From: a virus
Taxonomy: Duplodnaviria; Heunggongvirae; Uroviricota; Caudoviricetes
Direction: 5' to 3' (one strand)
DNA length: 5,563 nt
IMG/VR virus record: IMGVR_UViG_2617270980_000005
Made by a program: the position numbers and the translations under genes. The notes under the pieces are model-generated. The model worked only from the letters and a program-made list of their open reading frames with translations. It was not told the DNA's origin and did not search any database. Below are positions 1,466-4,434 of the stretch, piece by piece (position 1 is the stretch's first letter; every line of letters starts with the position of its first letter).

Positions 1466-1967
1466 AATTCCATCCAGCTTTTTGTTGGTATTGCTGTCGA
1501 TACGCAAGCTTGAAAGCAATTGCTTTTTCTATAAGTTCGTCAGTTTCACGATCTACAACGGCAGGATCTGCAAAAAGCAGTCCGGACTCCACCACATCGC
1601 CATATTCTTTATTTAACCCAGCGATCATGTACGTAATGCTCTTTCCGTCACTAATTTCACGATACAACCTGAAATCACTAATCCGGATAGCCTCCATAAT
1701 TGCAGGCACTAGCGCTGTGAACTTTTCACGCTTATCCCTGGTGTCGATAGCCTTCCAGCGTTCAAATATCTTCACTCGATTAACGCTAAGCGCTCGCTGA
1801 TCAACCGCGCCACCTTCATATGTGACACGCTGAACATCGATGTTCGGGCGCTCTTTCAAAGCCCAGAATGCTTCAGTGATTAATATCGTCGCCTGCTCCT
1901 GTGTCATTCCTGGTCGACATATCCAGGCATCCAGAGCCTCACGAGCCTGTTCAGGAGTGATTTTCAT
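1446..1967 (-). CDS. hypothetical prophage early protein, 173 aa, in the cII position between the cro-like gene and the replication initiator
   Basis: ATG at 1967-1965; overlaps the dicC 3' end by 17 bp and the initiator start by 20 bp (compact operon). Protein MKITPEQAREALDAWICRPGMTQEQATILITEAFWALKERPNIDVQRV… looks globular and charged-balanced. Likely the intact counterpart of the decayed ydfX/ydfW region of K-12 Qin (from memory, unverified). Confidence 0.7.
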   Translation of the reverse strand: MKITPEQAREALDAWICRPGMTQEQATILITEAFWALKERPNIDVQRVTYEGGAVDQRALSVNRVKIFERWKAIDTRDKREKFTALVPAIMEAIRISDFRLYREISDGKSITYMIAGLNKEYGDVVESGLLFADPAVVDRETDELIEKAIAFKLAYRQQYQQKAGWNYEPSFC

Positions 1968-2181
1968 TGTTCAACCGCCCCGCCCGCTTCGTCTTACGAT
2001 ATTCGTCATAAACTTTGGGATCATACTGAAGCTCCCCGCCAGATGCCTCCTGTAGACGCATCGCGCGACCTTCGGGAACTAAATCCCCTTTCCAGCTATA
2101 AAGCGAAGCCAAACGAATACCTGCTGCTTGTGCAAGTTTTGTTTTTGAACCGAAATACAAAAGAGCGTCAGTTTTAAGCAT
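1951..2181 (-). CDS. dicC: DicC, Cro-like HTH regulator of the Qin-type immunity switch (76 aa)
   Basis: ATG at 2181-2179 with AAGG 7-8 nt upstream on the minus strand; protein MLKTDALLYFGSKTKLAQAAGIRLASLYSWKGDLVPEGRAMRLQEASGG… matches remembered DicC; divergent from dicA. Confidence 0.9.
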   Translation of the reverse strand: MLKTDALLYFGSKTKLAQAAGIRLASLYSWKGDLVPEGRAMRLQEASGGELQYDPKVYDEYRKTKRAGRLNNENHS

Positions 2182-2995: not shown

Positions 2996-3571
2996 ATGGA
3001 TTTCGACACAATCATGGAAAAGGCTTACGAAGAATACTTCGAAGGCCTTGCCGAAGGCGAAGAAGCTCTCAGCTTCAGTGAGTTTAAACAGGCACTCAGA
3101 ATAAGAATGTGCTCTCACAATGACGCGGAGCACAAATATGAGAAGCAAAATCAGACCGCAGAAAATTTTGTTCTGGAACCCGGAGAAACGCTTTTCAAAA
3201 TTCCCGTTACGTGCCCCATTTGCGGTTTTACATCAGAAGAACTTGACGACTCCTGTAACAATCAGGAAACAACCAAGTATGTCGAAGATGATACCGAGTG
3301 CGCACGAAGAACGATTATATCCACGAGTCCAAACTCCAGGACCAATAAATCTCACCTTGAGAGGGTAATTAATCCACTCCCCCAAACCAATAAAAAAGAT
3401 GCCGGAGGACAAAAAACCCAATGGAACAACGGGATATCTGTCAAAAAAAGACGTTCCATTAAAGACAAACAACGCAGCGCCAACAACTGTAAGCGCTTTA
3501 TACCAGTAATCAATTTTCATGTTCTTAAGCGGATTTATTGGTGGTTGCGACATTGCTTAATGAATCCTTAA
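2996..3571 (+). CDS. ydfB: YdfB-like protein, here as an extended 191-codon frame (acidic N-terminal region, CPICG..C motif); 3' extent uncertain
   Basis: ATG 2996 with AGGTGAG Shine-Dalgarno, start coupled to the ydfA stop (TGAtATG). N-terminal ~105 aa look protein-like (MDFDTIMEKAYEEYFEGLAEGEEALSFSEFKQAL…VTCPICGFTSEELDDSC…). The C-terminal half is low-complexity K/N/R/S-rich with rare Arg/Ile codons and is overlapped by an alternative + frame (3138-3368) and a minus-strand ORF (3233-3553), so the true coding end is unresolved. Confidence 0.5.
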   Translation: MDFDTIMEKAYEEYFEGLAEGEEALSFSEFKQALRIRMCSHNDAEHKYEKQNQTAENFVLEPGETLFKIPVTCPICGFTSEELDDSCNNQETTKYVEDDTECARRTIISTSPNSRTNKSHLERVINPLPQTNKKDAGGQKTQWNNGISVKKRRSIKDKQRSANNCKRFIPVINFHVLKRIYWWLRHCLMNP

Positions 3572-3830
3572 AACTGTGGTGATTTTAAGGATACCACCTC
3601 GCCTGACGTGGTTAAAAGCAGGCACACAACACGAAAGCGCACGGCGAAGTTCGTCTCACTGTACGGTGTCGTTAAATTTAATTCGACCGTGCGCTTCCGG
3701 TTGTGGCAACCCGCGAAATGGCGCGGCGGTAAGTATGGCGGGGTTATTCCTTCCCCGTTGAGGACACCGAGTTGTCAGGTTGACCATACGCTTAAGTGAC
3801 AACCCCGCTGCAACGCCCTCTGTTATCAAT

Positions 3831-3883
3831 TTTCTGGTGACGTTTGGCGGTATCAGTTTTACTCCGTGACTGCTCTGCCGCCG
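3831..3883 (+). ncRNA. dicF: DicF small regulatory RNA (about 53 nt)
   Basis: TTTCTGGTGACGTTTGGCGGTATCAGTTTTACTCCGTGACTGCTCTGCCGCCG matches the remembered DicF sequence nearly base for base; located between the ydfB/ydfC region and dicB as in the Qin dicB operon; followed by a T5 run. Confidence 0.9.
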
Positions 3884-3888
3884 TTTTT
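3846..3888 (+). terminator. candidate intrinsic terminator forming the DicF 3' end
   Basis: GGCGG (3846-3850) pairs with CCGCC (3878-3882) enclosing an inner CAGT/ACTG helix, followed by GTTTTT (3883-3888). The stem is imperfect, hence moderate confidence. Confidence 0.45.
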
Positions 3889-4057
3889 AAAGTGAATTTT
3901 GTGATGCGGTGAATGCGGCTAAGCGCACGCGGAACAGTTAAAACCAAATACAGTGTTATGGGTGGATTCTCTGTATCCGGCGTTAATTGTTAACTGGTTA
4001 ACGTCACCTGGAGGCACCAGGCACTGCATCACAAAATTCATTGTTGAGGACGCGATA

Positions 4058-4246
4058 ATGAAAACGTTATTACCAAACGTTAATACGTCTGAAGGTTGTT
4101 TTGAAATTGGTGTCACTATCAGTAACCCTGTATTTACTGAAGATGCCATTAACAAGAGAAAACAAGAACGGGAGCTATTAAATAAAATATGCATTGTTTC
4201 AATGCTGGCTCGTTTACGTCTGATGCCAAAAGGATGTGCACAATGA
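4058..4246 (+). CDS. dicB: DicB, cell-division inhibitor (62 aa)
   Basis: ATG 4058 with GAGGA 9 nt upstream; protein MKTLLPNVNTSEGCFEIGVTISNPVFTEDAINKRKQERELLNKICIVSMLARLRLMPKGCAQ matches remembered DicB. The longer 97-aa track ORF (3953) is an in-frame 5' extension without RBS. Confidence 0.95.
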   Translation: MKTLLPNVNTSEGCFEIGVTISNPVFTEDAINKRKQERELLNKICIVSMLARLRLMPKGCAQ

Positions 4247-4434
4247 ATTCAGCATTTGCGCTTGTTCTGACAGTTTTTCTTGTTTCCGGAGAGCCAGTTG
4301 ATATTGCAGTCAGTGTTCACAGGACAATGCAGGAGTGTATGACTGCAGCAACCGAACAGAAAATTCCCGGTAACTGTTACCCGGTCGATAAAGTTATTCA
4401 CCAGGATAATATCGAAATCCCGGCAGGTCTTTAA
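4243..4434 (+). CDS. ydfD: YdfD, small prophage lysis protein with N-terminal hydrophobic segment (63 aa)
   Basis: ATG 4243 overlaps the dicB stop (ATGA); AAGGA 9 nt upstream; protein MNSAFALVLTVFLVSGEPVDIAVSVHRTMQECMTAATEQKIPGNCYPVDKVIHQDNIEIPAGL. Confidence 0.9.
   Translation: MNSAFALVLTVFLVSGEPVDIAVSVHRTMQECMTAATEQKIPGNCYPVDKVIHQDNIEIPAGL

Follow-up and report, generated by a model that had tools for sequence, protein, structure and literature searches.

A conserved four-way-junction RNA domain with a probable pseudoknot upstream of DicF, and a long helix that competes for one of its strands

What occupies the long untranslated interval that precedes the small RNA (sRNA) gene dicF in a Qin-like prophage? 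The stretch of DNA analysed here, called the window, is 5,563 nucleotides (nt) in length (virus record IMGVR_UViG_2617270980_000005) and comes from a Qin-like lambdoid prophage of Escherichia coli, of which it covers the immunity and early-left region. The interval in question is 3566-3830. The original prediction, made from the letters alone, had described it as a GC-rich structured region with three dyads and had read it as a platform for processing by RNase III and by RNase E that might hold a further RNA element. The observation was confirmed in part and the interpretation was supported in part. The processing reading was right, although it was already experimental knowledge for strain K-12, and the guess of a further element also held: the segment 3700-3814 adopts a four-way-junction fold that includes a pseudoknot, supported by covariation and without a match in Rfam. 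The domain consists of the following parts.

3700-3814, plus strand: conserved four-way-junction domain of about 115 bases, supported by covariation
3700-3705/3809-3814, plus strand: helix P1
3711-3715/3722-3726, plus strand: helix H1
3728-3730/3766-3768, plus strand: helix P3
3739-3743/3753-3757, plus strand: helix H2, in which the pairing is kept and the stem sequence is free
3769-3777/3797-3805, with an extension 3778-3780/3790-3792, plus strand: helix H3
GUAUGG 3733-3738 with CCAUAC 3784-3789, plus strand: loop-loop pseudoknot

All three predicted dyads are present close to where they had been placed. One of them, CCGCG/CGCGG at 3711-3715/3722-3726, is H1 of the junction, while the main helices of the interval (helix P1, P3, H2, H3, and the pseudoknot) had not been foreseen. 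How well is the fold supported? The prediction had proposed a search for covariation across orthologues, and both RNAalifold and pair counts revealed compensatory changes in a conserved structure. The RNAalifold consensus of 35 representatives aligned with MAFFT is the four-way junction, and 13 of its 29 pairs have changed on both sides. In a second alignment, 45 distinct sequences, many of them close relatives, were fitted to a covariance model; across the 37 pairs including the pseudoknot, 96.5% of cells are paired (36-56% with slid partners), compensatory changes occur in 17 pairs, and none of 500 shuffles attains any of five measures. The independent MAFFT result agrees. H2, H3, and helix P1 each have several stem versions in separate lineages, H3 occurring as GUUGUCA/UGACAAC, GUUGCCA/UGGCAAC, GUAACCA/UGGUUAC, GCUACCA/UGGUAGC, and AUCACCA/UGGUGAU. 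Because of the G.U pairs, the RNA must lie on the plus strand. The covariance model, named R1, scores 136 bits at 3697-3819 of the window and returns a single copy at each locus.

The pseudoknot comprises six contiguous Watson-Crick pairs that link two otherwise invariant loops. A double change from U-A to C-G (GCAUGG/CCAUGC) was found in the phage P1 lineage, and U.G and other wobble-compatible changes were found elsewhere. On this comparative evidence the pseudoknot is probable rather than proven.

Might the interval be a GC-rich relic whose dyads arose by chance and which serves as spacing only? The region is GC-rich as predicted (54.5% G+C at 3601-3800 versus 40-45% in the flanks), and the folding energy of the core 3695-3819 is no better than that of shuffled sequences (z = -0.34). 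Thermodynamics alone thus cannot establish the structure, whereas covariation does, and the single-sequence minimum free energy structure of the excised core is the consensus junction. Compensatory changes in five helices in independent lineages, and the conservation of the domain from phage P1 to Erwinia and Izhakiella prophages beside a hypervariable flanking spacer, make a mere relic extremely improbable.

A protein-coding interval is equally improbable. Open reading frames (ORFs) do exist at 3576-3761, 3608-3799, and 3656-3829 (minus strand), and phage records annotate coding sequences over the element (2H10 gp36, cdtI orf40, pPE4 gp07, F1055_0036). However, the ORFs have alternative start codons and no Pfam or PHROG hits, H2 carries indels of 1, 2, and 4 nt in homologues, which are not multiples of three, substitutions track base pairing rather than codon position, and the annotated ORFs vary in strand and frame between phages. 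The doubt that the prediction had cast on the first two ORFs was therefore justified, and the coding and chance readings are both effectively excluded. "Hypothetical protein" genes annotated on the strand opposite the domain in four related loci (L270 4034-4228, L126 2545-3000, L272 2498-2704, and L273 2276-2848, all minus) are probably spurious calls.

Does the domain belong to a known RNA family? Rfam scans were run on the window (E<=1), on the interval (E<=10), and on the loci of phages P1, P7, and cdtI. They returned only DicF, sub-threshold STnc100, transfer RNAs (tRNAs), and C4/isrK. In the window DicF alone was above threshold, its 52-nt model (RF00039) matching 3832-3883 only; nothing was found in 3566-3830 even at E<=10, and 3700-3814 fits no Rfam family. 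C4 and IsrK (RF01695, RF01394) have no match in the window. The cdtI locus carries both beside an antirepressor gene and unrelated to the domain (L126 40-228, minus strand; C4 68 bits, isrK 60 bits), so the search was able to detect them. A tRNA-like or transfer-messenger-RNA-like cloverleaf was considered and rejected, as ARAGORN was negative in the window and in six related loci, the true tRNAs of phage P1 apart, and Rfam gave no such hits. A likeness to 5S ribosomal RNA seen by eye was likewise dismissed, since the Rfam 5S model gives no match.

What flanks the domain in the same RNA? A long helix precedes it and shares its first strand, and DicF follows it as the 3′ module of the same RNA of about 190 nt.

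3625-3646 (5′ arm) and 3684-3705 (3′ arm), plus strand: long irregular helix of about 20 base pairs (bp) with a variable apical insert, 3647-3683
3700-3705, plus strand: shared strand GUUGUG, which pairs with 3625-3630 (CACAAC) or with 3809-3814 (UGCAAC, helix P1)
3815-3831, plus strand: single-stranded linker GCCCUCUGUUAUCAAUU, which ends at the 5′ end of the 53-nt DicF, RNase E-dependent according to PMC10448788
3832-3888, plus strand: DicF sRNA (Rfam RF00039 at 3832-3883, 72.5 bits, E = 4e-15)
3846-3852/3876-3882 (stem) and 3884-3888 (U-run), plus strand: DicF terminator

A second predicted dyad, GCGCACGG/CCGTGCGC at 3637-3644/3687-3694, turned out to be part of this longer imperfect helix. 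The helix has 20 pairs with two mismatches and one bulge, about the two turns expected of an RNase III substrate, and the folding energy of 3560-3890 is below that of shuffles (z = -3.6). In 23 Qin-type variants, 21 pairs of the helix are conserved. In every other lambdoid type the corresponding position holds a 19-22 bp helix whose arms differ in sequence and show compensatory changes; apical inserts measure 25 to 132 nt, and duplex z-scores run from -1.5 to -6.5. A register difference of 1 nt between types means that the long helix cannot be counted under one structure line, and its support thus comes from the pairs conserved in the Qin-type variants and from the helices of the other types.

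Qin-type long-helix arms: ACGAAAGCGCACGG/CCGUGCGCUUCCGG
cdtI-type long-helix arms: GAUGAGGGCAUUUA/UAAGUGCUCUCAGC
Erwinia long-helix arms: GAUGAGAGCAUUG/CAGUGCUCUCUUC
Trabulsiella long-helix arms: AGGUAAGAGCAUUCC/GGAGUGCUCUUUCC

Two other identities were tried for this part of the leader. The sequence GUGCUCUUU just 5′ of helix P1 resembles a boxA; a nut site was rejected, since this sequence serves as 3′ arm in the conserved long helix and its 5′ partner co-varies with it. The CACAACA-like 3′ strand brought the anti-sRNAs AgvB and AsxR to mind; these are encoded at the PR′ moron site and not here.

The base of the long helix (six pairs, 3625-3630 with 3700-3705) and helix P1 are mutually exclusive. 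This competition for the shared strand holds in all lambdoid types, and in the two most divergent copies, L218 and L197, both partners co-vary with the shared strand.

L218: shared strand UCGUUGCGUGCUGU, upstream partner CGGCACACAACGA, downstream partner ACAGCGCAACG
L197: shared strand CCUGUUGUG, upstream partner CACAACAG, downstream partner ACAACAGG

In the folding model, uncleaved RNA 3620-3890 forms the long-helix base with probability 1.0 and helix P1 with probability 0, and forcing helix P1 costs 5.2 kcal/mol. When the nascent RNA has reached 3806, the model predicts the long helix together with H1, P3/H2, and H3.

Which nuclease steps are known at this locus? According to PMC10448788, DicF of K-12 is excised from the polycistronic dicBp transcript; the 5′ end of a 190-nt DicF species is made by RNase III and the 53-nt DicF by RNase E (there citing Faubladier 1990). 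The same paper reports, with primer extension, that the 190-nt species is lost in rnc, and that in an rne-ts strain with RNase E inactivated the 190-nt species accumulates while the 53-nt form vanishes. If the 3′ end of DicF is put at about 3884, a species of 190 nt would begin at about 3695, within the 3′ arm of the 3625-3705 helix. This helix is the documented RNase III substrate in K-12, and from the 190-nt size I infer a cut near 3694/3695 here. Such a cut would lie 5 nt before helix P1, whose 3′ strand stops 17 nt short of the DicF 5′ end. Locus and RNA are those studied in K-12, with 3625-3705 as the RNase III site and 3700-3831 within the 5′ 137 nt of the 190-nt species.

The account that I favour, tentatively and at somewhat less than an even chance, is that the interval makes up the non-coding 5′ portion of the DicF RNA of about 190 nt together with an RNase III gate that releases this RNA, the whole being a conserved maturation module. 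The long helix 3625-3705 would form first during transcription, hold GUUGUG, and keep the junction open in the dicB-operon transcript. RNase III would then cut near 3695 and take away the competing 5′ arm. Helix P1 could close, bringing the 5′-monophosphate tail 3695-3699 beside the single-stranded linker 3815-3831, and RNase E would cut at 3831/3832 to free the 53-nt DicF. The folded domain would be a conserved carrier that phage Hfq-type sRNAs with different seeds have reused. In phage P1, where the domain would stand at the extreme 5′ end of the ban-operon transcript, the RNase III step would be unnecessary. The helices, their covariation, their exclusion of one another, their boundaries, and the distribution of the domain are results of this analysis, and the nuclease dependencies come from the work of others in K-12; the order of refolding, and the promotion of RNase E cleavage by closure of helix P1, belong to the proposal.

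Several points weigh against this account. For the whole post-cleavage RNA 3695-3890, the nearest-neighbour model, which does not include the pseudoknot, puts the probability of helix P1 at just about 0.1, and GGCGGUA (3725-3731) within the domain is predicted to pair with the 3′ arm of the DicF terminator. Copies of the cdtI type have a short linker of about 12 nt. Phages P1 and P7 have the domain without the long helix, and a 5′-triphosphate is expected there. H1, the loops, and the junction residues are near-invariant, which is more than a passive scaffold requires, although much of the invariance of the H3 loop follows from the pseudoknot. For this strain, the precise point of RNase III cleavage is deduced from the 190-nt size, and the link of the domain to RNase E cleavage is itself conjectural. 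As to the heptamer GGCGGUA, it occurs both at the H1/P3 junction (3725-3731) and in the 5′ arm of the DicF terminator (3846-3852), and the model therefore predicts pairing of 3724-3737 with the terminator 3′ arm in the full-length RNA. Phage P1-type copies are free of this long-range pairing.

Is the domain confined to DicF loci? A search of 5,426 complete E. coli genomes found the domain in 4,308 (79%), at 8,924 places, none of which bears an annotated feature, and with up to 8 copies per genome. A BLAST search with the leader found 3700-3822 without DicF in other phages, namely cdtI, Stx2c phages, 2H10, Salmonella F1055, and a phage deposited under Actinobacillus, always downstream of a cI/DicA-like repressor. 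Pattern scans added copies in E. albertii, E. ruysiae, Shigella, Citrobacter, Trabulsiella, Erwinia tracheiphila, and Izhakiella, and about 240 viral contigs with the domain. In phages P1 and P7 the domain directly follows the C1 operators of the ban promoter. In the phage P1 record NC_005856 the BLAST match is 68739-68833 and the covariance-model match about 68728-68844; the domain begins about 37 nt after the predicted P1ban start, and a terminator lies about 150 nt further. The domain is older and more widespread than DicF itself.

What follows the domain in its various copies? In the window, the 3′ part is of the Hfq type (a U-rich stretch, a GC-rich terminator hairpin, and a U-tail at 3843-3888, downstream of the interval). 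UUUG, a GC-rich hairpin, and a U-run follow the domain within 60-160 nt in 237 of 241 copies of all types including phage P1. The stretch between helix P1 and the terminator is hypervariable in relatives and mostly much shorter than here; in this window it contains the DicF 5′ seed, and elsewhere the variants of E. albertii, the cdtI type, and others. The unit thus looks like an sRNA gene family in which the 5′ domain stays constant and the seeds can change.

DicF variants with other 5′ seeds or loops were seen in E. albertii and several viral contigs, and the cdtI/Stx2c-phage type carries AGCCACUGCUUUGG plus a GGCGGUACC hairpin downstream of the domain. These variants (L128 6884-6950, L133, L126 2616-2680, L181, L211, and L216) may be undescribed DicF-family sRNAs with other targets. 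In L147 (4666-4740, Erwinia tracheiphila), L148, L132, L145, and L159, the terminator hairpin is 60-68 nt in length and encloses an AGGAG resembling a Shine-Dalgarno (SD) sequence together with the AUG or GUG of a short ORF (36 amino acids at L147 4713-4823); the CU-rich 5′ arm of the L147-type hairpin pairs in cis with this AGGAG.

Could the domain, or the switch between the long helix and helix P1, instead set terminator readthrough in cis, as an antiterminator or attenuator that gates early operons? The genes read would be dicB, ydfD, exo, xis, and int in lambdoid phages that lack N, and tRNA-tci-ban in phage P1, and the element would be a functional analogue of HK022 put or of the Bacillus EAR element. 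The gene order fits: every context has a repressor-controlled early promoter, then the domain, then an intrinsic terminator ahead of all or most genes of the operon. In cdtI and 2H10 the domain lies at about +283 from PL, the terminator is reached without any ORF, and every operon gene comes after it. The DicF terminator of Tritos precedes dicB, exo, xis, and int (pPE4 and F1055 are further cases), and in phage P1 a strong terminator precedes the tRNAs, tciABC, and ban. Nearby, an N-like gene was neither annotated nor found, and bistable helix pairs are typical of attenuators.

Other observations speak against such readthrough control. There is one copy per phage and none in the PR operon. Candidate pairings between the domain and the terminator differ among the Qin, cdtI, and phage P1 types, and no conserved antiterminator pairing was found, which speaks against a riboswitch-style antiterminator; a conserved bistable pair does exist, but it leaves the terminator out. 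Moreover, in lambdoids the long helix would hold helix P1 open as the polymerase arrives at the terminator. No further strong terminators occur downstream, and processive antitermination is thus not required. K-12 has both terminated and read-through transcripts, none of which reaches past ydfD (PMC10448788).

The comparison with HK022 deserves a closer look. Like the domain, putL and putR are structured cis RNAs of a similar order of size that follow early promoters and precede terminators in a phage without N. A put site is about 70 nt, has two stem-loops and a triplex, and occurs in two copies per phage (PMC9378689), whereas the domain is about 115 nt, forms a four-way junction with a pseudoknot, and occurs once per phage record or locus rather than after both PL and PR. 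The put RNAs promote readthrough of terminators with no need for phage proteins and depend on the zinc-binding domain of the RNA polymerase beta′ subunit. Homology was rejected as well: the HK022 PL-putL region, located by a published primer, shares two short words only, and the R1 model has no match in HK022 22000-32000, including the surroundings of putL, at E<=1. What may be analogous is the context alone (an early promoter, an element, a terminator, and no N gene). Taken together, I consider control of readthrough in cis unlikely.

Alternatively, the RNA of about 175-190 nt may itself be functional, its 5′ domain binding a host protein or a small ligand as a decoy, an adaptor site, or a sensor, with the 53-nt DicF as one output. 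The compact pseudoknotted fold, with H1 and junction residues near-invariant in phage P1, lambdoids, and several genera, would suit such a role; in phage P1 the unit is a discrete promoter-to-terminator RNA. The 190-nt form is described as stable in stationary phase (PMC10448788), and Hfq enrichment has been reported for an interval upstream of dicF (PMC4152368), which speaks for the favoured maturation account as well. The retention of the domain in most E. coli genomes, with up to 8 copies in one genome, also agrees with this role, but could be hitch-hiking with dicF and dicB. Moreover, there is no known partner, Rfam gives no match to a riboswitch, ribozyme, or protein-binding RNA family, and the published DicF phenotypes all map to the 53-nt part. 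An independently acting RNA therefore seems rather doubtful. A similarly low probability attaches to the view that the long helix and the junction represent an undescribed class of phage regulatory RNA, either an RNase III-gated bistable switch or a protein-independent antiterminator, in which the domain contacts a conserved host machine such as RNA polymerase or RNase E. In such a class, the RNA would determine whether transcription halts at the sRNA terminator or continues into the early-left operon (N-less lambdoids) or the ban operon of phage P1.

How does the window differ from other Qin-like prophages? The prediction had placed the interval between ydfB/ydfC and dicF; in fact ydfB is truncated and ydfC is absent, unlike in K-12 and strain TUM2826, as shown by alignment. 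Strain T309.Ta3 has an identical stretch, in which the RefSeq annotation is empty between a ydfB pseudogene and dicB. The neighbouring features are as follows.

1951-2181, minus strand: dicC
2265-2672: dicA
2839-2994: ydfA
After ydfA: ydfB, truncated
About 3100-3587: strain-specific insertion, which takes the place of the ydfB C-terminus and ydfC
3233-3553, minus strand: ORF of 106 amino acids inside the insertion, hydrophobic by eye
3564-3573/3583-3592: perfect 10-bp palindrome ATCCTTAAAA-N9-TTTTAAGGAT at the right edge of the insertion
3588-3624, plus strand: segment that other prophages carry directly 5′ of ydfC, as seen when K-12 and TUM2826 are aligned
4058-4246: dicB
4243-4434: ydfD

The segment 3588-3624 is joined straight to the leader that elsewhere lies downstream of ydfC, which here starts at 3625, and this ydfC-less arrangement was found again at many loci. 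ydfC appears as a presence/absence cassette between the near-repeats AAAAGCAGGCA and AAAAGTCAGGGCA, both forms being common in prophages. Among phage records, the 3100-3587 insertion module was seen only in phage HannyBb, and Pfam and PHROG searches assign no family to its minus-strand ORF. The palindrome is the remaining predicted dyad. It exists, and is perfect, but homology to other Qin-like (ydfC-containing) prophages begins only at 3588, and the palindrome thus lies outside the conserved DicF leader. It falls within the 5′ untranslated region (UTR) that belongs to the minus-strand ORF, whose ATG follows 11 nt downstream of the palindrome, and one arm includes AAGGA, which may serve that ORF as an SD sequence.

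Downstream of DicF, a sub-threshold Rfam match to STnc100 was observed in the dicF-dicB spacer (window 3881-4090, 34.7 bits) and upstream of tciA in P7/P1 (L124 3910-4025, 43 bits; L125 4039-4159, 33.9 bits; gathering score 47). Besides the junction domain, a second non-coding module is thus common to the Qin dicB operon and the phage P1 ban operon. Host cell-division inhibitors recur just downstream of the domain and terminator, namely DicB in the Qin type (window 4058-4246), Kil in pPE4 (L272 2935-3156), and TciB in P1/P7 (L124 4497-4661).

What had been described before? DicF is among the oldest known bacterial sRNAs and affects cell division, metabolism, and the virulence of enterohaemorrhagic E. 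coli. Reviews call the stretch before it a long untranslated region or the ydfC 3′ UTR. In the accessible text of the processing literature (Ragunathan et al. 2023, PMC10448788; Faubladier et al. 1990), the upstream part is a "long untranslated region" or precursor. The junction and pseudoknot fold, the competing helices, and the spread outside Qin are undescribed in the accessible DicF literature searched, Faubladier 1990 being represented by papers that cite it. The record of phage P1 has a misc_feature "dicF-like region" (NC_005856 68791-68892) that overlaps the right half of the domain copy and the terminator. The P1 annotators had thus noticed the similarity between the ban leader and dicF. 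It is annotated as similarity only; phage P1 has no Rfam DicF match, and the shared part is the upstream domain. Thus, the processing role is already known, while the conserved fold and the two-state helix arrangement appear undescribed in Rfam and the literature searched.

Are there parallels in other systems? Updegrove and colleagues, in a 2019 study that PMC9438474 cites, are said to have shown that MicL, an sRNA derived from a 3′ UTR, relies on an upstream structure to guide its maturation by RNase E. Cleavage of GlmZ is guided by the adaptor RapZ. The likeness would be that an upstream structure sets the RNase E cut which frees an Hfq-type sRNA with its terminator. Those systems use simple stem-loops or a protein adaptor, whereas the window has a large pseudoknotted domain with a competitor removable by RNase III, and here the RNase E link is inferred. 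The lambda N leader in the PL operon also has an RNase III-sensitive helix, whose cleavage remodels the downstream RNA and controls N translation. Both it and 3625-3705 are helices of early-left leaders, but there is no sequence relationship and the lambda site does not release an sRNA.

What does the finding mean for DicF and its phages? The 137-nt upstream partner of DicF in the 190-nt species, so far treated as a spacer, is a conserved pseudoknotted domain, and it is coupled to a conserved competing RNase III helix. The covariance model lets annotators remove spurious ORFs over the domain RNA. The question of the long leader becomes specific: does RNase III trigger refolding, and does the fold guide RNase E or readthrough? 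The finding also raises the question of how N-less lambdoid phages and the ban operon of phage P1 pass a terminator at the head of the operon.

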